Shown here: piece after piece, positions 4,406 through 32,000 of the stretch | Position numbering within the stretch: position 1 is the first letter of the stretch | Layout of the letters: every line of letters begins with the position of its first letter | Program-made: the position numbers and the translations under genes | The notes under the pieces: model-generated | The model's database searches: none | What the model was told of the DNA's origin: nothing | The model's input: only the letters and a program-made list of their open reading frames with translations | Origin: Wigglesworthia glossinidia endosymbiont of Glossina morsitans morsitans (Yale colony) | GTDB taxonomy: Bacteria > Pseudomonadota > Gammaproteobacteria > Enterobacterales > Enterobacteriaceae | Length of the DNA: 32,000 nt | Assembly (NCBI RefSeq): GCF_000247565.1 | Contig: NC_016893.1 | Coordinates: forward strand, 30,001-62,000 | Direction: 5' to 3'

Positions 4406-5099
4406 AAATAAATAATTTTTCAAAAAAATATCAGAAATGTTAATAAAAAAATATATAAGATTGTTCAAAATTATCATTCTATTAAAAATTGAAAATAAAA
4501 TTATATTTTACATAAAAAATATATTTTTCATATAAAATATTGTTATTTTTTTTAAGTAAAAAAAATTTATATTTATAAAATTTTTTTAATTTAATTCAAA
4601 AAAAAAAATTAATATATATTTAATATATTATGATTATAAACAAAAAATTAATAATTTTAGTATATTAAAAAAATAAATTTTAATTTTTTTTAAAAGTTTT
4701 TTAATATTTTCATTTTTTAAATCAAAAAAAATTTTAATTTTTTAAAATTTAATTAATTTAAATAAGAATATTTTATTTTTTTAAATATTTATAATTTTTT
4801 TTATTTTAAATTAATGAATTATATTTAATATAATAATTTTAATAAAATTTATATTTATAACAATTTTTTTAACATAATGAATATTATGTATTAATTTTTA
4901 TTAAATTAGTTTTTATAGATTTTAATTTTATATTAAAATATGTTTAAAATTAAATTAAAAAACATTATAAATTTTTCAATAAAAAAGAATATAAATTATA
5001 ATTAAAAAAACAAACTTAATAAAATTTTAAGAAAAACTAAAAAATTACGCTTATTTTTAGAGTATAAAAAATATTTTGGTTAAATATTTTTGTTATCAC

Positions 5100-5128
5100 T
5101 TGACACTTGAATATATCACACATAATAT
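5100..5128 (+). promoter_or_regulatory. Candidate sigma70 promoter of the str operon (TTGACA-N17-TAATAT)
   Basis: A perfect -35 TTGACA lies at 5100-5105, followed by an exact 17-nt spacer and a -10 TAATAT at 5123-5128. It is about 118 nt upstream of the rpsL ATG. G/C-containing -35 hexamers are rare in this A/T desert. Confidence 0.55.
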
Positions 5129-5245
5129 AAAATTATATTTGTTTTTAAATGTTTAAAAAAGTCGATATTTAGCTAAAAACATTGATAAAAATTAAAAATT
5201 ATATTTGATAATGTATAAAAATTATTGATAAGGAACAATACAAAT

Positions 5246-6203: not shown

Positions 6204-8327
6204 ATGAACCATTTAACACCAATAGAAAATTATAGAAACATCGGAATCAGCGCACATATAGACGCTGGAAAAACTACTACTACAGAACGCATACTATTTT
6301 ATACTGGAGTCAATCATAAAATAGGAGAAGTACATCATGGATCCGCTACTATGGACTGGATGATACAAGAACAAGAACGTGGAATTACTATTACTTCGGC
6401 AGCAACAACTTGTTTTTGGTCAGGAATGAAAAATCAATTCAACTTACATCGTATTAATATTATCGATACTCCAGGTCATGTTGACTTTACTATAGAAGTA
6501 GAACGTTCAATGCGCGTTTTAGATGGAGCAATCATGGTATACTGCGCAGTAGGAGGGGTACAGCCTCAGTCTGAAACAGTATGGAGACAAGCTAATAAAT
6601 ATAATGTGCCAAGAATTGCATTTATTAATAAAATGGATCGTGTTGGAGCAAATTATTTCAATGTTATTCATCAACTAAAATATAAATTATCTGCTAATCC
6701 TATACCAATTCATTTACCAATTGGAAATGAACAAAATTTTTCTGGAATAATAGACTTAATTAAAATGCAAGCAATTTATTGGAATACCTTAGATCAAGGT
6801 GTAACCTGTTTTTATAAAGATATTCCAAGTGAATTAAATGCACTATCAAAAAAATGGCATCAAAACTTGATCGAAGCTGCTGTAGAAAATTCAGAAACTT
6901 TAACAGAAAAATATTTAAATGATCATTTAACAAAAAAAGACATAAAAAAAGGATTAAGATCACGTGTTTTAAAAAATGAAATTGTACTCGTTACATGCGG
7001 ATCAGCTTTTAAGAATAAAGGGATACAATCAATGTTAGATGCGGTAATTGAATATTTGCCATCACCACTTGATATAAGCTTTAATAAAATAAATAATAAT
7101 ATTGAAAACATAAATCAAAAAAAAACAGAAAAGACTAGTGCACCATTTTCTGCATTAGCATTTAAAATTGCCAACGATCCATTTGTAGGAAATTTAACGT
7201 TTTTTCGAGTTTATTCAGGAAAAATAGAATCTGGAGATACAGTATACAATTCCGTAAAAAATAAATATGAAAGATTTGGACGTATTGTACAGATGCATGC
7301 TAATAAAAGAGAAGAAATTAAAGAAGTTAGATCAGGCGATATTGCTGCAGCTATTGGCTTAAAAGATGTTACTACAGGAGATACGTTATGTCATCCAGAT
7401 CATCCTGTTATTTTAGAAAAAATGGAATTTCCAGATCCCGTAATTTCTATTGCTGTTGAACCAAAAACTAAATCAGATCAAGAAAAAATGAGTATAGCAT
7501 TAAGTAGATTAGCAAAAGAAGATCCATCATTTCATGTACATAGCGATAACGAATCTGGTCAGACTATTATTTCTGGAATGGGTGAATTACATCTCGAAAT
7601 TCTTATAGATCGCATGTATCGAGAATTTAATGTGAAAGCAAATATCGGTAAACCTCAAGTAGCTTATAGAGAAACTATTCAAGAAATTATTGAAGAAGAA
7701 GGCAAATTTATTCGACAATCTGGAGGTAGAGGACAATTTGGACATGTTTGGTTACGTATAGAACCAAAAAATAAAAATTTAAAAAACGAAAAAAATAAAA
7801 ATAATTATACTTTTATTAATAAAATTGCAGGAGGAGTAATTCCAAAAGAATATATTCCGGCAATTGACAAAGGAATTCAAGAACAATTAAATAACGGAGT
7901 TTTAGCAGGATATCCAATTGTAAACATTTGTGTAACTGTATTTGATGGGTCATATCATGAAGTTGATTCTTCAGAAATAGCATTTAAAATTGCAGCTTCT
8001 ATAGCTTTTAAAAATGCCTTTATGCAAGCAAAACCAATTTTGCTCGAACCTATTATGAAAGTAGAAGTAGAGACTCCACATGAATACATGGGAGATGTAA
8101 TTGGAGATTTAAGTCGTAGAAGAGGAATAATAGAAGGCATGCAAGACATAAGTAATTTAATCAAAATAATTACCGCACAAGTTCCATTATCTGAAATGTT
8201 CGGATATGCTACAGATTTACGTTCAAAAACTCAGGGTCGAGCTTCATATTCAATGGAATTTTTAAAATATAAAAAAATTCCTCAACATATTACAGAAAAA
8301 ATTGTTAATTCAAAAATTATAAAATAA
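6204..8327 (+). CDS. fusA: Elongation factor G
   Basis: [35 protein letters not shown]... aligns residue for residue with the E. coli EF-G N-terminus. AAGGAA lies 3 nt upstream of the ATG at 6204. The ORF-track start at 6156 adds a non-homologous extension that overlaps rpsG. Confidence 0.96.
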
Positions 8328-8534
8328 TCATACAATTTTTGATTTTATATTAAATTTTATTAAGAATATAAATTAATTAATAAAAATTAAATTTTATTTT
8401 TATTATAAAATTTATTTTTTTTATTTTTATTAAAATAGATTTTTTTATGTCTATAAAATATAGTTTATATTTTAAATATAAAATTATCTTATTAAGATTA
8501 ATAAAAATTTTTTATTTTTTTGAATAAAAAAATA

Positions 8535-8563
8535 TTGACGTATTTAAATTAAAACAGTAATAT
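8535..8563 (+). promoter_or_regulatory. Candidate distal sigma70 promoter in the fusA-flhD spacer (TTGACG-N17-TAATAT)
   Basis: The -35 TTGACG is at 8535-8540, followed by a 17-nt spacer and a -10 TAATAT at 8558-8563. It would give a leader of roughly 560 nt to flhD. Chance matches are plausible in A/T-rich DNA. Confidence 0.3.
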
Positions 8564-8949
8564 TTCCCACCATTCATTTAAAAAAAATAAATACAAAAAA
8601 TTTTGTTACAAATAAACTATAGACAAAAGTATCATTTTTAAATTAGAATCATTAAAATTGTGATTTTCAAATAACTTTTAAAAAAATTAATTTTGTTATA
8701 TATTTAAAATAAAATATCAATTAAAAAATAATAAAAAATAAAGAATCATTAATTTTAGATAAATTAAAATAACTATTTATCAATACGATTTAAAATTTAA
8801 AAAAAATTAGAAATTAAAAATTTATTAGAGATAAAATTAAAGATATAAAAAGAATTTATATTCAATTAAAAAAAGAACATTTTTTATTTTATTTAAAATA
8901 AAATAAATCTCAATTTATTCCAATGAACATGAAATAATAGATTAATATT

Positions 8950-8978
8950 TTGATATTCAGGAACGAGAACATTATATT
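8950..8978 (+). promoter_or_regulatory. Candidate proximal sigma70 promoter for flhDC (TTGATA-N17-TATATT)
   Basis: The -35 TTGATA is at 8950-8955, followed by a 17-nt relatively G/C-containing spacer (ttcaggaacgagaacat) and a -10 TATATT at 8973-8978. The leader would be about 145 nt, comparable to the long E. coli flhDC leader. Confidence 0.35.
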
Positions 8979-9129
8979 TTTAAAAAAATAGTTTTTAATA
9001 TTGAAAACAAAAACTTAACTTCTTAAGTTTATAAAATGAGCTCAATTATCAAAATTTTAATTTAGTAAATTAATTAATTAAGAGTTTATTTAAAATCTTT
9101 CTTCGCTAGAAAAACAAGGATGCATACAA

Positions 9130-10153: not shown

Positions 10154-11053
10154 GTGTTAATTATAATCGGTTACTGCGTTGTATTCGTTTCTGTGTTTGG
10201 CGGTTTTTTATTAGCAGAAGGCCAAATTGGCGCATTATTTCAACCAGTAGAATTATTAATTATATTAGGGGCTGGATTAGGTGCTTTTATTGTTGGAAAT
10301 AACGGCAAATCTATTTTTGCAACTATCAAAGCATTTCCAAAATTATTTCACTCATCACGTTATAATAAAGATATGTACATGGATGTCATGTCCCTTATAT
10401 ATCGATTACTTTCAAAAAGTAGACAATCAGGACTAATCAGTTTAGAAAAAGACATCGATAATCCTGAAACAAGCAAAATTTTTTCAAATTATCCATTAAT
10501 GCTAAAAGATAAACTCATTATAGATTTTCTTGTAGATTATTTAAGGCTTATGATTAGCGGAAATTTGAATGCTTATGAAATTGAGGCCTTAATGAATGAA
10601 GAAATTGAAACTTGCGAGCAAGAACATGAAGTTCCAATTACCAGTTTGTTACAAGTTGGTGATGCACTACCTGCTTTTGGAATAGTAGCTGCTGTAATGG
10701 GCGTAGTTAATGCGTTAGCCGCTGCAGATAGACCGGCAGCTGAATTAGGAGAGTTAATTGCTCACGCTATGGTAGGAACATTTTTAGGAATTTTATTAGC
10801 TTACGGCTGTGTGATGCCGCTAGGAGCTTTATTAAAACAAAAAAGTGACGAACACATTAAAATGCTACAATGTATTAAAATTACTCTGTTATCCAGTATT
10901 AATGGATACGCACCTCAAATAGCAATCGAATTTGGTCGAAAAATTCTTTACTCATCTGAACGTCCTTCATTTACTGAACTTGAAGAACATTTACGTCAAG
11001 TTAAAAAATCAGGATTAGAATCTCGTAACGATAATGCAACAGTGAATTCATGA
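10154..11053 (+). CDS. motA: Flagellar motor stator protein MotA
   Basis: The 299-aa ORF has a GTG start, as in E. coli. It is collinear with MotA (YRLLSKSRQSG...LEKDI keeps the R90/E98 equivalents; GDALPAFGIVAAVMGV; PAAELGELIAHAMVGTFLGILLAYG). Confidence 0.95.
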   Translation: MLIIIGYCVVFVSVFGGFLLAEGQIGALFQPVELLIILGAGLGAFIVGNNGKSIFATIKAFPKLFHSSRYNKDMYMDVMSLIYRLLSKSRQSGLISLEKDIDNPETSKIFSNYPLMLKDKLIIDFLVDYLRLMISGNLNAYEIEALMNEEIETCEQEHEVPITSLLQVGDALPAFGIVAAVMGVVNALAAADRPAAELGELIAHAMVGTFLGILLAYGCVMPLGALLKQKSDEHIKMLQCIKITLLSSINGYAPQIAIEFGRKILYSSERPSFTELEEHLRQVKKSGLESRNDNATVNS

Positions 11054-12018
11054 AAAAAAACTCACCAACAACAATATTAATTAAATGGAGAAAAGCTCAA
11101 AATTCTAGTCATCACGGTGGCTCTTGGAAAATTGCATATGCTGATTTTATGACAGCAATGATGGCTTTTTTTTTAGTTATGTGGCTACTTAGCACAAGCA
11201 CTCCGCAGCAACGCGAACAAATTGCTGATTACTTTCGTATGCCAATAAAAGATAATTTAAACAAAAATCAAAAAACTAACATTCACTCTATACCTATGCC
11301 AGAAAATGGTGGAAGCACTATTCAAACAGAACATGCAAATCAAAGAAAAGAACAAGAACTAGCGCATCAAAAAGATATAAGAAGATTAAACAAAACACGT
11401 TATCATTTGCAACAAATATTAAAAAATGATCCAAGATTGCGTGATTTTCAACGAAATATGCATATTACTTTAGTACATGAAGGATTAAGAATTGAAATCG
11501 TTGACAGTAAAAAAAGACCAATGTTTACAACCGGAGGAAAAGAAATCGCACCATATATGAGATATATTATGCGTATAATAGCTCCGGTATTAAACGAATT
11601 ACCTAATCGTATTAGTTTGGCAGGTCATACTGATAATCAACCATACATTAACGGAGAACGTGGATATGGAAATTGGGAATTGTCTGCAGATCGTGCAAAT
11701 GCATCACGTCGTGAACTTGTAGAAGGTGGATTAATGAGCGATAAAATACTAAGGGTGATTGGTATGGCTAATACGATGGCAACAAAGCACAAACATTCTC
11801 ATTATGCATCACAAAGAAGAATTAGCATAGTTATTTTAACTCAAAAACAAGAGGCAGCCATCAAAAAAGAAAACAGTGAAAGTCATAGCGAATTTATTGA
11901 AACTAATGATGATCCAGCATCTCAATTATGGAAATTAGCTGCTCCTCAAGCATTTACTGGAAAAAATGAATTTCAACTGAAATCTAATTTGAATAATTTT
12001 ACAAAAAAAAATGAATAA
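11050..12018 (+). CDS. motB: Flagellar motor stator protein MotB (OmpA-like peptidoglycan-binding C-terminus)
   Basis: The 322-aa ORF overlaps motA by ATGA. GSWKIAYADFMTAMMAFFLVMWL carries the conserved proton-binding Asp. NWELSADRANASRREL is the PG-binding motif. Confidence 0.95.
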   Translation: MKKNSPTTILIKWRKAQNSSHHGGSWKIAYADFMTAMMAFFLVMWLLSTSTPQQREQIADYFRMPIKDNLNKNQKTNIHSIPMPENGGSTIQTEHANQRKEQELAHQKDIRRLNKTRYHLQQILKNDPRLRDFQRNMHITLVHEGLRIEIVDSKKRPMFTTGGKEIAPYMRYIMRIIAPVLNELPNRISLAGHTDNQPYINGERGYGNWELSADRANASRRELVEGGLMSDKILRVIGMANTMATKHKHSHYASQRRISIVILTQKQEAAIKKENSESHSEFIETNDDPASQLWKLAAPQAFTGKNEFQLKSNLNNFTKKNE

Positions 12019-12082
12019 TAATTTTTTAACTTAGTTTATTAAAAATAAATGTATTTATTATATATATAAAAAATAAATAAGA

Positions 12083-12107
12083 AATCATAATGAATCATAA
12101 TGAATCA
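12083..12107 (+). repeat. 2.5 tandem copies of a 10-bp unit AATCATAATG spanning the flhB start codon
   Basis: A direct read gives aatcataatg at 12083-12092 and again at 12093-12102, then aatca at 12103-12107. The ATGs at 12090 (in frame with flhB) and 12100 (out of frame) belong to successive copies. Confidence 0.9.
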
Positions 12108-13241
12108 GAAAAACACGAAGACCCCACTCCGCATCGTTTAAAAAAAGCTAGATTTGAAGGAAATATACCACGTTCAAGAGATCTCTCTTCTTTAGTTACA
12201 TTATTTTTTGGGTGGCTTATCTTTGTTTTTTTAGGAAATCATTTAATCAAATATATAAAAATTTTTATTACAAAAAACTTAAACTTTGGGTTTCTTCAAG
12301 AAGAAGAAAACAATTTTATTCTATTTAATTTTTATTCATCAATAAAAGATATTTTTTTTATTTTAATGATAATTTTTATTTCTATCATCATAGTATCTAT
12401 CGGAACCTCCGGTTTGTTAGGAGGATGGGTATTAATTAAGAAACCTTTACGTATTGATTTTTCTAGAATAAATCCATATAGAGGAATTAAAAAAATATTT
12501 GAAAATAATATTTTTTTTGAAATGATTAAAACAGTTTTTAAATTTATTTTAACATTTACGTTTTGTATTTTATACCTATGGTTTATGCAATTCAAAATTG
12601 CAGATTTATCTAGCAACTACTATTTATTTGCGATAGAAAAAAGCGTATTAATAATTAAAAAATGTGTTTTTTTAATACTTTTAAGTCTTGTTCCTATTGT
12701 AGGATTCGATATATTATTTCAATTATTTAACTTCAAAAAAAAGTTAAAAATGTCACGTCTTGAAATTCAAGATGAAAATAAAGAAAATGAAGGCAATCCA
12801 CAATTAAAAAATTTTATACGTCAAAAACAACGTAAATTAGCATATCATCGTATGATGAATAATATTAAAAAAGCAGATGTAATTATATTAAATCCAATTC
12901 ATTATGCAGTTGCTTTAAAATATGAACAAAAAAAAATGCATGCTCCTGTTCTTTTAGCGAAAGGATCAGGAAATATTGCAAAAAAAATTAAAGAAAAAGC
13001 ACAAAAATATTTTGTTCCTATCATACAAATACCTAGTTTAGCTCAAATATTATATAAATATTGTCGTATTGGAGAATATATCCCATCAGAATTGTATGAA
13101 TCTGTTGCTAAAGTTTTAACATGGGTGTACAACTTAAAAAGTTGGAGAAATTTAGGTGGCATTCCTCCTGAAAAACCAACTAATATCAACGTTCCTAATA
13201 TACTAAAATTTTCAAAAAATCGGAAAATTTCGAATGAATAA
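12090..13241 (+). CDS. flhB: Flagellar type III export gate/switch protein FlhB
   Basis: The 383-aa ORF contains EDPTPHRLKKARFEGNIPRSRDL, KMSRLEIQDENKENEGNPQLK and ADVIILNPIHYAVAL (NPIH in place of NPTH). It is collinear with E. coli FlhB. Confidence 0.94.
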   Translation: MNHNESEKHEDPTPHRLKKARFEGNIPRSRDLSSLVTLFFGWLIFVFLGNHLIKYIKIFITKNLNFGFLQEEENNFILFNFYSSIKDIFFILMIIFISIIIVSIGTSGLLGGWVLIKKPLRIDFSRINPYRGIKKIFENNIFFEMIKTVFKFILTFTFCILYLWFMQFKIADLSSNYYLFAIEKSVLIIKKCVFLILLSLVPIVGFDILFQLFNFKKKLKMSRLEIQDENKENEGNPQLKNFIRQKQRKLAYHRMMNNIKKADVIILNPIHYAVALKYEQKKMHAPVLLAKGSGNIAKKIKEKAQKYFVPIIQIPSLAQILYKYCRIGEYIPSELYESVAKVLTWVYNLKSWRNLGGIPPEKPTNINVPNILKFSKNRKISNE

Positions 13242-15351: not shown

Positions 15352-15822
15352 TTAAGCTTTACTCTGAAAATTTTTTGTAAGTAATTTATACGAATTTCCG
15401 TCGGAACGGTAAAATGTTGCTTCTGGAATAACTTGTGTAAATTTTTTTTGTAACGTGTTCACAAAATTCATTTGAGTACTAATTTTTTGATTATTTTTTT
15501 CATTTCTTTCATAAACTTCATGCGTGATGCTTTGTATTTTTTTCCATAAATTTTGGGATTTAGGATGTTTTAAATCATTAGATCGAATATTCAAAGTTTT
15601 TTCTAGAGAAATTCGTTTTTTGTCTAATTCATTTAATTTATTAACTATCTTTTGTTTTTTTTCGATAATAAATTGAATTTTTAAATAATTTACAGGTGTA
15701 GTAGACAAAAAATTTGCTTCTAAATTTAATATAAACTTGAATTTTTTTAAATTGTAAAAGATGTGATTTAAAGTTTTATGCAGTTCTTCAAAAGAACATA
15801 AATTAATTGTATTATTTTTCAT
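15352..15822 (-). CDS. flgN: Flagellar export chaperone FlgN (for FlgK/FlgL)
   Basis: The 156-aa helical ORF sits in the conserved position downstream of flgA. Similarity to E. coli FlgN is weak but collinear, including the C-terminal ATFYRSDGNS versus PTLYGADGQTS. Sequence divergence is high. Confidence 0.78.
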   Translation of the reverse strand: MKNNTINLCSFEELHKTLNHIFYNLKKFKFILNLEANFLSTTPVNYLKIQFIIEKKQKIVNKLNELDKKRISLEKTLNIRSNDLKHPKSQNLWKKIQSITHEVYERNEKNNQKISTQMNFVNTLQKKFTQVIPEATFYRSDGNSYKLLTKNFQSKA

Positions 15823-15922
15823 ATTCTAATCAGTACGAAATTTAAAGTTTCTTAAAAAATTAATAATTTTCTTTAATATCTGTATTTAAAAAAAATTTTT
15901 TGGAAATAAATAACACAGTATT

Positions 15923-15949
15923 TTATCGACAAAATATAATTTTTCTTAA
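15923..15949 (-). promoter_or_regulatory. Possible residual sigma28 promoter (the position of the enterobacterial flgM class 3 promoter), now driving flgN
   Basis: The minus strand reads TTAAGAAA-N11-GTCGATAA. The -10 matches GCCGATAA at 7/8 and the -35 matches TAAAGTTT at only 4/8. It lies directly after the flgA stop and about 100 nt upstream of flgN. Confidence 0.35.
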
Positions 15950-15951
15950 AA

Positions 15952-16638
15952 TTATTTTATATTGAAAACTAACATGTTATCTGAATTTAAAATTCCTTGA
16001 ATAAATTTTCCAGATGGTAATTTTACTTTTAATATGTCTCCTATAACAGCGTTTTTCATGGCAATTCCATAATAGCGGATTCGGAATCCATTTCCAATAA
16101 GTTCAATAAAGATCTTATCGCCTTGATGTACATTCCAAGGGTCGCGTATCATACTAAAAGTAACAGGTTGTCCAACCCCGATCAATCTTGTAGAAATTGT
16201 TCCTATTATAGGATAATTAGATAAAACAAGATCATTAGGTAAATTAGTAATTTCACCATATGTTTGATGAATATGAGTTTTTTTAATAGTTGTTTTAGGT
16301 TTGATAAGAACAGATGATTTATAATATTTTGAATAACTTTTTATATTAATTTTGAAAATATATTTTTTATTTGTACATTGTATATTGACAATTGAAATAT
16401 TATTGATATTTATATAATTAGTCATATAAAGTTTTGGTTTTATGCAATTATCTTCAATAAATTTAGGAGAAAGAATAAAAATTTTATATTCCACTAATTT
16501 GCTATTATTTCGTTCATATAATAATTTTTCTATTTCTGGAATTAAAAAGTCTGAATTTTTTGCCAATATCTTAAATTCAAAAAAAAGTGTAAATAAAATA
16601 AAAACTAAAAAATTTTTTAAATTTTTTTTCATATGCAA
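15952..16638 (-). CDS. flgA: Flagellar P-ring assembly chaperone FlgA
   Basis: The 228-aa ORF has an N-terminal signal peptide. Its C-terminal half resembles E. coli FlgA (GDKIFIELIGNGFRIRYYGIAMKNAVIGDILKVKLPSGKFIQGIL versus GQRVNVIASGDGFSANAEGQALNNAAVAQNARVRMVSGQVVSGVV). It is divergent from flgB as in enterobacteria. An alternative start lies at 16632. Confidence 0.88.
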   Translation of the reverse strand: MHMKKNLKNFLVFILFTLFFEFKILAKNSDFLIPEIEKLLYERNNSKLVEYKIFILSPKFIEDNCIKPKLYMTNYININNISIVNIQCTNKKYIFKINIKSYSKYYKSSVLIKPKTTIKKTHIHQTYGEITNLPNDLVLSNYPIIGTISTRLIGVGQPVTFSMIRDPWNVHQGDKIFIELIGNGFRIRYYGIAMKNAVIGDILKVKLPSGKFIQGILNSDNMLVFNIK

Positions 16639-23164: not shown

Positions 23165-23461
23165 ATGAATCATCTTCTATCTGTAGAAAACACTAACTGT
23201 AATTTTTTGAATCAATCCGATTTAATTTATCAAAAAAATTTAAATAAACTAGAAAGCGCTTCTTCTGAACAAATGGAAAGCTTATTTGTAAATTTGATGA
23301 TAAAAAGTATGCGTTCTACACATTTAGAAAAAAATCTATTAAATAACGAACAAATTATGTTATATCAATCGATATACGATCAGATGCTATCTGATAAAAT
23401 TAGTCAAAAAAGCATAGGATTAAAAAATTTTTTTAACAAATACTTTTTCCAAAAATTATAA
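23165..23461 (+). CDS. flgJ: Flagellar rod-cap protein FlgJ, N-terminal (rod-capping) domain only; no muramidase domain
   Basis: The 98-aa ORF contains MESLFVNLMIKSMRSTH...LYQSIYDQMLSDKISQK, which aligns to E. coli FlgJ residues about 40-100 (VEGMFVQMMLKSMRDAL...LYTSMYDQQIAQQMT). The ORF then stops. Only 122 nt of A/T-rich non-coding DNA remain before flgK. Confidence 0.88.
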   Translation: MNHLLSVENTNCNFLNQSDLIYQKNLNKLESASSEQMESLFVNLMIKSMRSTHLEKNLLNNEQIMLYQSIYDQMLSDKISQKSIGLKNFFNKYFFQKL

Positions 23462-30368: not shown

Positions 30369-31631
30369 TTAAGCATACATATCTATTCTTGTATGATCTT
30401 GATTAAAGATATACTGTATTTTATTTTTATAGATATTATCGTTTTCAATTTTATTCAAATTTAGCTGTTCTTTTTTATTTTTTTTTCTATCTTTATTAAA
30501 TTCATTATTTTTTTCATTTAATCTATATTGATTTTGATTTTCTATGTTATTAAAAATGTTATCTGACTTGTAATGTAAAAAATCTTTTATAAAATGATTA
30601 CTAATCATTGCACTATCTAATAATATACCGTTATCTAATAAAGATTTACGTAATTCTTCTAAAGAACTTTTTAAAACCCCTCTTACTTCTGAATGTTCAG
30701 AAAATACATGTAATTTTAATTTACTTTTGTAAGATTTTAAAATAACGTTAATAGATCCCAGATTTTTCGGATGTATTTTAAATTCTAAGTGAAATACGCC
30801 ATCTTTTTTAAAAAATGCAATTTTTTCTTTTACTAAATTCATCCAAGATTTTAAATCATCAAAATTTTTTATATATAATGTTTGAACAAAATTTTTCGAT
30901 TCTGTAATGGAAGAAAATTCATTGGTATTCATATAATAAATATCTTGTAAATCAGATAAATTGTTAAATTTTTGATTTATATTTTTCTGTCGATTATCCT
31001 GATTAAAGTTTTCAAAAATCAATTCCAAATTTTTTTTAATTTCTATATTTTGATATGATTTTTCTATATTTTCATTTTTTAAATTAGAAATACATTTCTC
31101 AAATATGTTTTTATTTACTAAAAAAATTTTTTTGTTCTGTTTTAATTGAATATAATCATTTTGATCAATAGATAAAAAACAGCTTTTTGGTGATTGGTTT
31201 GCTGAGTTCAAATGATCTAAATCAAAATCTTTCGAAAAAATCAAATTTTGATTATTGTTGAAAATATAATTTTCTGAAAAATAATTTTCTAATATATCTT
31301 TTTTTATTTTTTTATTAAAATTTTTGTTTAACGTATTATCAATTTTAGAATTAAACAAGTTTTGAATGTCATTTTTAGACATACTAAAATTATATAATGT
31401 ATTATTTTCCTCGTTAAAATTTGATTTCTCAGTTTTTAAAATTTCTGAATCATTAAAATATTTTTGAACATTTTTTTCATCAAAAATTGAAGTATTAAAT
31501 TGATTAAAAAATGATTTTTCAAAAATATTTTTTAATATCTTTTTGAATTCTAATTTGTCTGTTATTTCTGGAATAACATTAATTACGTCTTGTATATTAT
31601 GTAGAATATTATCTTCATTCAAACATATCAA
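30369..31631 (-). CDS. fliK: Flagellar hook-length control protein FliK
   Basis: The 420-aa ORF is extremely N/K-rich. Its C-terminal region LEFKIHPKNLGSINVILKS...LKLHVFSEHSEVRGVLKSSLEELRKSLLDNGI resembles the FliK C-terminal switch domain (L.L.P.ELG...V......v.l.f.......vr..le..l..Lr..L...G). It has the operon position between fliJ and fliL. The start is a TTG at 31631 with AAAGGAG 8 nt upstream. Confidence 0.82.
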   Translation of the reverse strand: MICLNEDNILHNIQDVINVIPEITDKLEFKKILKNIFEKSFFNQFNTSIFDEKNVQKYFNDSEILKTEKSNFNEENNTLYNFSMSKNDIQNLFNSKIDNTLNKNFNKKIKKDILENYFSENYIFNNNQNLIFSKDFDLDHLNSANQSPKSCFLSIDQNDYIQLKQNKKIFLVNKNIFEKCISNLKNENIEKSYQNIEIKKNLELIFENFNQDNRQKNINQKFNNLSDLQDIYYMNTNEFSSITESKNFVQTLYIKNFDDLKSWMNLVKEKIAFFKKDGVFHLEFKIHPKNLGSINVILKSYKSKLKLHVFSEHSEVRGVLKSSLEELRKSLLDNGILLDSAMISNHFIKDFLHYKSDNIFNNIENQNQYRLNEKNNEFNKDRKKNKKEQLNLNKIENDNIYKNKIQYIFNQDHTRIDMYA

Positions 31632-31635
31632 AATA

Positions 31636-32000
31636 TTATACTCCTTTGGTATATTTTCTTAAATATAATTCGTCTATTTGCTTTTGTAAATTTTTATCTT
31701 GGAGAACTTTATGTGTTAAAATGCAACGTTTTTTTAAAATTGTGAACGCGTTTAGTTTATTTTTTTTTTTTTCCAATAATTTTTTGCTTTATTAAGTTGT
31801 AATTTATAATTATTTACTTCTTTATTATAATCAAAAATTAAATTATTTAAACATATAAGAAAAACTTGATAATTATGCCAAACATTTATTTCCAAACCGT
31901 ACTTTATCATATTTTCTTGTAAACTAAGTCGATATTCTTTTTCATATAAAATAAGCATATTTAATTTTTTAACTGATTCTTGATATAAATTGCAAGCTTG
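31636..32000 (-). pseudogene. fliJ: Flagellar export stalk/chaperone-escort protein FliJ, 5'-truncated by the window edge and split by a frameshift in an A13 tract (a pseudogene, or rescued by slippage)
   Basis: The upstream frame is open from 32000. It reads QACNLYQESVKKLNMLILYEKEYRLSLQ...NYWKKKKIN* with a stop at 31752-31754, and aligns to E. coli FliJ residues about 30-105. The frame shifted by one continues from 31761 to the stop at 31636-31638 as NKLNAFTILKKRCILTHKVLQDKNLQKQIDELYLRKYTKGV*. That aligns to the FliJ C-terminus (RLQAWQTLQERQ...ENRLDQKKMDEFAQR). Confidence 0.85.
31760..31772 (-). repeat. 13-nt homopolymer (poly(A) on the fliJ coding strand) at the fliJ frameshift
   Basis: A direct count gives t at 31760, ten t at 31761-31770 and two t at 31771-31772 on the + strand. 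The run is flanked by cca (Trp codon) and a. Confidence 0.97.

Follow-up and report, generated by a model that had tools for sequence, protein, structure and literature searches.

Long poly(A) runs in genes of the AT-rich obligate insect endosymbionts Buchnera aphidicola and Blochmannia give 12-50% corrected transcripts (PMC5009743; about 30% according to PMC3017870). As these two papers present the original reports (Tamas et al. 2008; Wernegreen et al. 2010), the genes concerned carry a single indel in an A run of at least 10 nucleotides (nt) and are otherwise intact, the frameshift is common to related species, and the frame downstream of the run stays open under purifying selection. Here fliJ of another AT-rich obligate insect endosymbiont, Wigglesworthia glossinidia, is compared with this class. 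In the flagellar export ATPase FliI6, FliJ forms the stalk. Its gene lies at the end of a 32,000-nt stretch (hereafter the window; 25.6% G+C) of the reference genome of the Glossina morsitans symbiont (NC_016893.1, positions 30,001 to 62,000), where a frameshift within 13 consecutive A residues splits it. On balance, we lean towards the view that the frameshift is retained under selection, and that full-length FliJ would come from slippage during transcription and/or sliding of ribosomes along the A run, as judged from the conservation of the frame beyond it.

A type III secretion system offers a second parallel. In Shigella flexneri, spa13 is expressed through transcriptional slippage (Penno et al. 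2006, as summarized in PMC5009743), and its product, Spa13 (SctO), is the stalk within the ATPase hexamer and the counterpart of FliJ (PMC7762205). According to that summary, slippage occurs during transcription after codon 58, adding a 112-amino-acid (aa) extension, and the functional full-length form amounts to 25-30% of the product (PMC5009743). The extended frame overlaps spa32, which governs needle length, and affects its expression. In general type III nomenclature, Spa32 (SctP) corresponds to the hook-length protein FliK. Homopolymer runs have also been reported to cause phase variation of fliP in Helicobacter pylori and of flhA and flgR/flgS in Campylobacter jejuni.

The truncation of fliJ is itself already published. 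The gene of the G. morsitans symbiont was called a pseudogene by Rio et al. 2012, as stated in Medina Munoz et al. 2021 (PMC8166097), who reconsidered it and proposed that the short protein may still be partly functional. In Rio et al. 2012 (PMC3280448), 11 pseudogenes were listed, and rescue of homopolymer frameshifts was raised for the pseudogenes of that genome in general. A literature search found no paper tying fliJ specifically to an A run or to slippage. New here are an intact FliJ in the G. brevipalpis symbiont, two more frameshifted lineages, a constrained tail and an ungapped alignment to Salmonella FliJ. What is chiefly added is the evidence from three lineages that the frameshift apparently persists together with an intact, constrained tail.

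Read on the minus strand, the gene runs ...AAT TAT TGG, then A13 (31772..31760), then T AAA CTA AAC GCG TTC... In frame 0 this is translated as ...NYWKKKKIN, ending at a TAA at 31754..31752. The upstream segment in this frame (31752..32000, minus strand) holds codons 27-108 of the annotated 108-aa product and its stop codon. The -1 frame (offset +2) gives KKKNKLNAFTILKKRCILTHKVLQDKNLQKQIDELYLRKYTKGV, 41 codons closed by a TAA at 31638..31636; taken as the open stretch up to that stop, the same frame reads NKLNAFTILKKRCILTHKVLQDKNLQKQIDELYLRKYTKGV. This downstream segment (31636..31761, minus strand; NKLNAF...TKGV), hereafter the tail, corresponds to the C-terminal part of the second FliJ helix. 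At the A13 run (31760..31772, minus strand; T13 on the plus strand), one added A joins the two frames, and an in-frame gene would need A14 or A11. The initial annotation had placed the split inside A13, with one extra A restoring the full frame, and the strand reading and translations bear this out. The window ends within fliJ; the start codon is 78 nt past position 32000, and only the database protein supplies the first 26 codons. With 100% identity, the truncated product matches WP_041944093.1 ('flagellar FliJ family protein [Wigglesworthia glossinidia]'), the RefSeq annotation of the 108-aa open reading frame (ORF) being a FliJ family protein. Although A13 is the longest homopolymer of the window, such a run is no rarer than chance at this composition (1.03 expected per window; present in 48 of 100 shuffles). 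Its significance is its position, not its length.

Both halves belong to FliJ. Against Pfam PF02050 (curated cut-off 28.4 bits), the A14-repaired 121 aa covered profile positions 9-123 of 123 with 64.9 bits, the upstream part by itself positions 9-87 with 41.8 bits, and the 41-aa tail by itself positions 88-123 with 16 bits; thus, the halves abut exactly, and the cut-off is passed by both the repaired and the truncated protein. NCBIfam TIGR02473 gave the same split pattern, with 48.1 bits (cut-off 50.45) for the 121 aa, which lack the 26 N-terminal residues. Repaired FliJ aligns with Salmonella FliJ (PDB 3AJW) along both helices and without a gap over the junction (ywkkkknklnaftilkkr / swrekkqrlqawqtlqdr), in agreement with the earlier assignment of the continuation to the C-terminal part of FliJ. 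Equivalents of L42, Y45, Y49, F72 and L76 are kept and Q38 is replaced by K. Because both halves match FliJ without a gap, the break is a one-nucleotide frameshift in an otherwise collinear gene. Gene order is also that of a fliJ locus, between fliI and fliK in the fliE-K/fliF operon region: fliK directly follows fliJ in the window, and fliI precedes it in the three other Wigglesworthia lineages compared, the window's own fliI sitting past coordinate 32000. By homology, the gene is a genuine FliJ split by a single frameshift in an A run.

The lineages compared with the window were L001 (Logan run SRR14633898), L005 (Logan run SRR21669497) and the G. brevipalpis symbiont (L002, NCBI genome), and the in-frame lengths of each were obtained by systematic re-translation at run lengths 8-16. 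The G. brevipalpis symbiont, the outgroup, has an interrupted run, A6-GAG-A9 (TGG AAA AAA GAG AAA AAA AAA TTA, W KKEKKK L; written TGG AAAAAA GAG AAAAAAAAA), which is already in frame and lies in an intact 150-aa FliJ. An interrupted run in the non-frameshifted lineage was likewise described for dnaX of Blochmannia pennsylvanicus (PMC3017870). The window, with A13, encodes a FliJ of 108 aa. L001 has A12 (10307-10318) and a FliJ of 106 aa (frame 0: TGG AAA AAA AAA AAA TAA), and would need A11 or A14; L005 has A10 (7692-7701) followed by GAC and a FliJ of 109 aa, and would need A9 or A12. All three frameshifted lineages are therefore broken at the same run, in two different wrong phases. A comparison of tract length across sister lineages had been proposed in the initial annotation, and its outcome is that A13, A12 and A10 are all out of frame, with an intact gene only where the run is interrupted.

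The 109-aa product of L005 is identical in an NCBI metagenome-assembled genome (MAG; MDQ1237257.1) and in Logan; for FliI, L005 has the protein also recorded in an NCBI MAG and under a UniRef entry from G. palpalis gambiensis. A genome-collection scan with a degenerate DNA pattern of the fliJ tail retrieved 43 matches, most of them due to chance, including the G. brevipalpis genome and a single Wigglesworthia MAG; the MAG locus (L039) stops a few bases short of the run, its run length being deduced from the identical 109-aa product. A FliK protein search gave two proteins only, low-complexity candidates dominating. L001 (contig of 155,548 bp) is a lineage apart from the two published genomes, with identities to the window of 97.8% for FliI, 82% for FliK and 90% for FliM; its FliI is 96.8% identical to a G. 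pallidipes-derived FliI fragment. On this sampling, the frameshift is shared by morsitans- and palpalis-group symbionts and would be either long-standing or recurrent.

These lineages bear directly on whether the run was simply miscounted in the reference, the true run being A14 (or A11) and the gene intact in the G. morsitans symbiont. The genome was sequenced by Sanger chemistry to 9.4x; the DNA had undergone multiple-displacement amplification, and the templates were Taq-amplified clone inserts (PMC3280448), so that slippage on a run of 13-14 nt is plausible. Exact look-ups of the FliM and truncated FliJ of the window, and the FliK search, turned up no independent assembly of this strain. 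Nevertheless, the finished sequence is reported to reach a Phrap quality of 40 or better, poor regions having been sequenced again, and both the original authors and RefSeq treat fliJ as truncated (PMC8166097). A miscount cannot account for L001 and L005, since both were assembled independently and have their frame broken at this run too, with one of the alleles present in two sources. We regard a sequencing artefact as very unlikely, though the exact count of 13 in the window may be off.

The two wrong phases also speak to a dedicated programmed -1 ribosomal frameshift of the dnaX type. A -1 ribosomal slip had been put forward in the initial annotation as one way of restoring FliJ. The window allele offers, in frame 0, a heptamer that fits X XXY YYZ perfectly (A AAA AAA within TGG AAA AAA AAA AAA ATA), a slippery A-rich element like that of dnaX, and a -1 shift here enters the right frame. 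Unlike in dnaX-type frameshifting, the direction of the shift is not conserved and stimulatory elements are missing: L001 and L005 reach a stop after a -1 shift and need +1 or -2; the 70 nt 3' of the run fold with only -1.4, -4.4 and -1.2 kcal/mol in the three lineages (z = +1.1, -0.9 and +1.7 against shuffles), showing no stable structure; and no Shine-Dalgarno-like stimulator lies in the 20 nt upstream of the run. As a -1 shift fits the window allele only, whereas all three alleles are compatible with a process that generates various lengths or frames, this mechanism did not hold up and is extremely improbable.

The 40 codons of the tail from KLNAF to the stop hold no stop codon and no indel in an alignment of the four lineages. 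Nei-Gojobori ω was 0.08 downstream and 0.35 upstream of the run between the window and L001, 0.24 and 0.375 between the window and L005, and 0.35 in both parts between L001 and L005. Under a pairwise Goldman-Yang maximum-likelihood codon model, which allows for AT bias, tail ω was 0.09-0.24, with ω = 1 rejected (likelihood ratio test, P = 0.005-0.04), and that of the upstream part was 0.10-0.26. Fisher tests on synonymous and non-synonymous counts in the tail gave P = 0.003, 0.002 and 0.02; the tails of the window and L001 differ by five synonymous and two non-synonymous changes. When the observed substitutions were placed at random, the tail frame stayed open in 17-21% of trials at window-L005 divergence and in 7-9% when the same simulation started from the G. 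brevipalpis sequence. Each of the five intergenic spacers compared between L001 and L005 varies in length, and their identity is 45-74%, against 77% identity and no internal indel for the fliJ tail. In the best-conserved block of the tail, LQKQIDELYLR, which matches QKKMDEFAQR of Salmonella, lineages differ only by synonymous changes and one K to R, arguing for a constraint at the protein level, which fits better than constraint from fliK expression signals. A promoter or terminator as the cause of tail conservation was addressed by counting 12 promoter-like matches (7.1 ± 2.6 in shuffles) and no terminators, which is uninformative in such AT-rich DNA. The initial annotation had held that both halves are under selection rather than decaying, and had named neutral evolution of the tail in sister lineages as the pattern that would contradict it. 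With ω below 1, neither stops nor indels and a collinear FliJ, the former was upheld; neutral tail evolution was not seen, purifying selection being found instead.

The tail as a separate gene with its own start was considered and rejected. L001 and L005 have no ATG, GTG or TTG in frame and thus no canonical start codon from which the tail could be separately translated. In the window, the only start candidate in the tail frame is a TTG without a Shine-Dalgarno sequence.

Selection on the upstream part is compatible with another explanation, namely that the truncated FliJ of 106-109 aa is the sole product, either functional alone or the remnant of a lost gene, and that the tail has been conserved through recent independent frameshifts and the ribosome-binding site of fliK. 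FliJ is a two-helix antiparallel coiled coil, and its hairpin (residues 38-83) stands out from the FliI6 ring and touches the linker of FlhA (PMC9114704). In the 3AJW alignment, the truncated product retains this hairpin, including the equivalents of the five FlhA-linker contact residues listed above (PMC9114704), in a segment under purifying selection. RefSeq keeps the 108-aa ORF as a FliJ family protein, preserved function of the short form has been proposed (PMC8166097), the fliK Shine-Dalgarno sequence sits within the tail, and the run is hypermutable, its length differing even in the close pair of the window and L001, so that independent events are plausible. However, two or three such recent events would be required, in every sampled lineage other than that of G. 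brevipalpis. The constraint is codon-periodic, as the counts for the window and L001 show, and reaches about 100 nt upstream of the Shine-Dalgarno sequence; the tail motif is conserved at the protein level as far as Salmonella; and there are no indels in 120 nt of tail, in contrast to every spacer compared. The coiled-coil architecture (PMC9114704) adds a structural objection: what is lost with the tail is one half of helix 2, the one expected to pair with the N-terminal part of helix 1. The tail is for this reason probably necessary for a proper stalk, which would explain its conservation. Taken together, a short FliJ as the only product is unlikely.

If instead full-length FliJ is made by slippage or sliding on the run, the course of events may have been as follows. 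AT mutational pressure would have turned an ancestral W-K-K-E-K-K-K motif, as seen in the G. brevipalpis symbiont, into an uninterrupted lysine-coding poly(A) run. The DNA would then code for a truncated FliJ of 106-109 aa which keeps the helix-loop-helix contacting the FlhA linker and lacks the last ~40 residues of helix 2. RNA polymerase could realign on a run of A10-A13, longer than the ~9-bp RNA:DNA hybrid, and ribosomes may also slide on poly(A). From the resulting mixture of run lengths and reading frames, a minority of products would be a ~147-aa FliJ joining both halves, and this minority product is the likely reason why the downstream frame stays under selection. Both steps have precedents: rates of insertion and deletion in transcription climb exponentially with homopolymer length (PMC5574713), and ribosome sliding on iterated AAA codons is documented (PMC4363877). 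In the G. morsitans symbiont, fliJ is transcribed and differentially expressed, with higher expression in female bacteriomes (PMC8166097). We infer that transcriptional slippage may occur in Wigglesworthia and yield full-length FliJ, and a reduced dose of FliJ may be sufficient or even advantageous.

Several points weigh against rescue by slippage or sliding. An analysis of W. glossinidia by Baranov et al. 2005 (PMC1088944) found A/T runs to be equally common in coding and non-coding DNA and suggested that slippage does not occur. Traverse and Ochman 2017 (PMC5574713) detected zero frame-restoring transcription errors in Buchnera. Deletions are rarer than insertions at homopolymers (PMC5574713), and rescue in L001 and L005 would depend on deletions. 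Truncated FliJ, as argued by Medina Munoz et al. 2021 (PMC8166097), keeps the FlgN- and FliT-binding regions and may work alone. Moreover, the region compared is short (40 codons), the P values are modest and the pairwise comparisons share branches; if the frameshifts were recent and independent, conservation of the tail could date from the era of the intact gene. The argument for rescue is, in all, one from evolutionary conservation.

Long A/T runs also occur in frame in intact genes: A10 in fliJ of the G. brevipalpis symbiont (L002 7544-7553), A11 in fliH of L001 (8074-8084) and, in the window, a 10-nt run within carA (984-993). If slippage is frequent, genes with in-frame runs must tolerate some frameshifted product.

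The lengths of the fliJ run (10, 12 and 13 among lineages) reveal that it mutates in the DNA, which raises the possibility of heterogeneity at that level, by phase variation or heteroplasmy. In that case, an in-frame subpopulation of cells would make FliJ and the assemblies would give the majority length; this is compatible with retention of the frameshift under selection and with rescue on the run. Coding homopolymer switches are a general prokaryotic regulatory device (PMC2831843), and it is the milk-gland population, not that of the bacteriome, which makes flagella (PMC3280448). As in homopolymer phase variation (PMC2831843), a run in a flagellar export or regulatory gene decides whether the full-length protein is encoded, and its length varies by lineage. 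The differences are that no ON allele has been seen, and that Wigglesworthia is a vertically transmitted, strongly bottlenecked symbiont and not an immune-evading pathogen. In-frame run lengths were absent from the three frameshifted lineages (at least four assemblies), and an exact look-up of eight alternative-length FliJ products (six of them in frame) among ~15 billion proteins found none. A favoured in-frame DNA should dominate in at least one of the three lineages, a weak argument given that none of three has a probability of 0.30 at random phase. A switch in the DNA seems distinctly unlikely.

Downstream of fliJ, fliK (30369..31631, minus strand) encodes a hook-length control protein of 420 aa with a TTG start, 100% identical to its database protein and matching Pfam Flg_hook PF02120 with 48.3 bits. 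Its Shine-Dalgarno sequence, AAAGGAG (31641..31647, minus strand), is 9 nt upstream of the TTG (31631..31629) and inside the last codons of the -1 frame of fliJ, so the sequence confirms the earlier proposal that the fliJ continuation carries this signal. L001 has AAGGGAG and L005 AAAGGAG at the same place. The full-length fliJ frame stops 4 nt ahead of the fliK start, and with so little between them translational coupling of fliK to that frame may be possible. The fliJ-fliK spacer is similarly short in L001 and L005 (31629-31638 in the window), and the two genes overlap in the G. brevipalpis symbiont, where GTGA combines the stop of fliJ with the GTG start of fliK (L002 7831-7834). It is conceivable, though doubtful, that the out-of-frame state is itself selected, with the run serving as a slippage-gated dose limiter of FliJ, and possibly of FliK via termination-reinitiation. 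Flagellar export would thereby be kept low or confined to a subpopulation, for example the extracellular milk-gland transmission form, in convergence with the spa13-spa32 circuit of Shigella. The tunable valve on export suggested in the initial annotation is likewise conjectural.

Set beside the described systems, fliJ has the sequence characteristics of the Buchnera and Blochmannia class: an indel site at A13, an otherwise intact gene, a break in three lineages and purifying selection on the tail. The comparison with poly(A) slippage in these genera, drawn in the initial annotation, is therefore apt (PMC5009743, PMC3017870). It differs from the class in several respects. The symbiont belongs to another genus, and the gene is one for flagellar export, as opposed to genes for cell-wall, histidine and replication functions. 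The run varies in length from lineage to lineage, producing two wrong frames. The Buchnera and Blochmannia genes are defined by heterogeneous transcripts, whereas Wigglesworthia fliJ is known here from sequence alone, and an earlier survey argued that W. glossinidia has no signature of slippage avoidance (PMC1088944). With spa13, fliJ shares the position of its product as a stalk within the ATPase hexamer, and its frame adjoins fliK (hook length) where that of spa13 overlaps spa32; a full-length form in the minority, as described for Spa13, may be a further likeness. The Shigella gene, however, serves the virulence injectisome of a free-living pathogen and not the flagellum of an endosymbiont, and its slippage has been shown experimentally, while that of fliJ is deduced; the run in fliJ follows codon ~106 and precedes an extension of 41 aa, in contrast to the earlier site and longer extension in spa13.

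The remainder of the window holds carA, dapB, a permease gene, a gene for a PabA-like amidotransferase, rpsL, rpsG and fusA, followed by the flagellar genes flhDC, motAB, flhBA, flgN, flgA, flgB-L and fliR-J. The lengths of the ORFs are equal to those in L001 and close to those in the G. brevipalpis symbiont. Since the other ORFs match their relatives in length, no broken gene other than fliJ was seen in the block, and the other flagellar genes are, as had been maintained, intact and full-length.

Some features of the block depart from the enterobacterial arrangement. In E. coli and Salmonella, flgM, encoding the anti-sigma-28 factor, sits between flgN and flgA. In the window, flgN (15352-15822, minus strand) and flgA (15952-16638, minus strand) are separated by a 129-nt gap (15823-15951) in which no ORF of at least 20 aa was found on the minus strand; thus, flgM is absent from its usual place. 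Enterobacterial FlgJ carries a C-terminal muramidase domain. FlgJ of the window (23165-23461) is 98 aa long, as is that of L001, where only the rod-binding domain PF10135 is present, and the muramidase domain seems to be missing in both. The chemotaxis gene cluster, which in E. coli separates motB from flhB, is absent between motB (11050-12018) and flhB (12090-13241), which adjoin with a gap at 12019-12089. ORFs of at least 80 aa are missing from two stretches, each about 800 nt long: 4406-5224, upstream of rpsL and including an A11 run at 4598-4608, and 8328-9129, between fusA and flhD. In the window, tufA does not follow fusA, and neither Rfam families nor tRNAs were found across its entire length.

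Wigglesworthia is essential to tsetse flies. If fliJ is expressed via slippage, the flagellar export apparatus would be complete in the lineage of the G. morsitans symbiont, and comparisons between tsetse species should not count fliJ among the lost genes. Homopolymer frameshifts maintained by selection would then extend to a third endosymbiont genus and to a component of a secretion machine. The parallel with spa13 hints that the stalk and length-control position in type III systems tolerates, or may even benefit from, expression limited by slippage.

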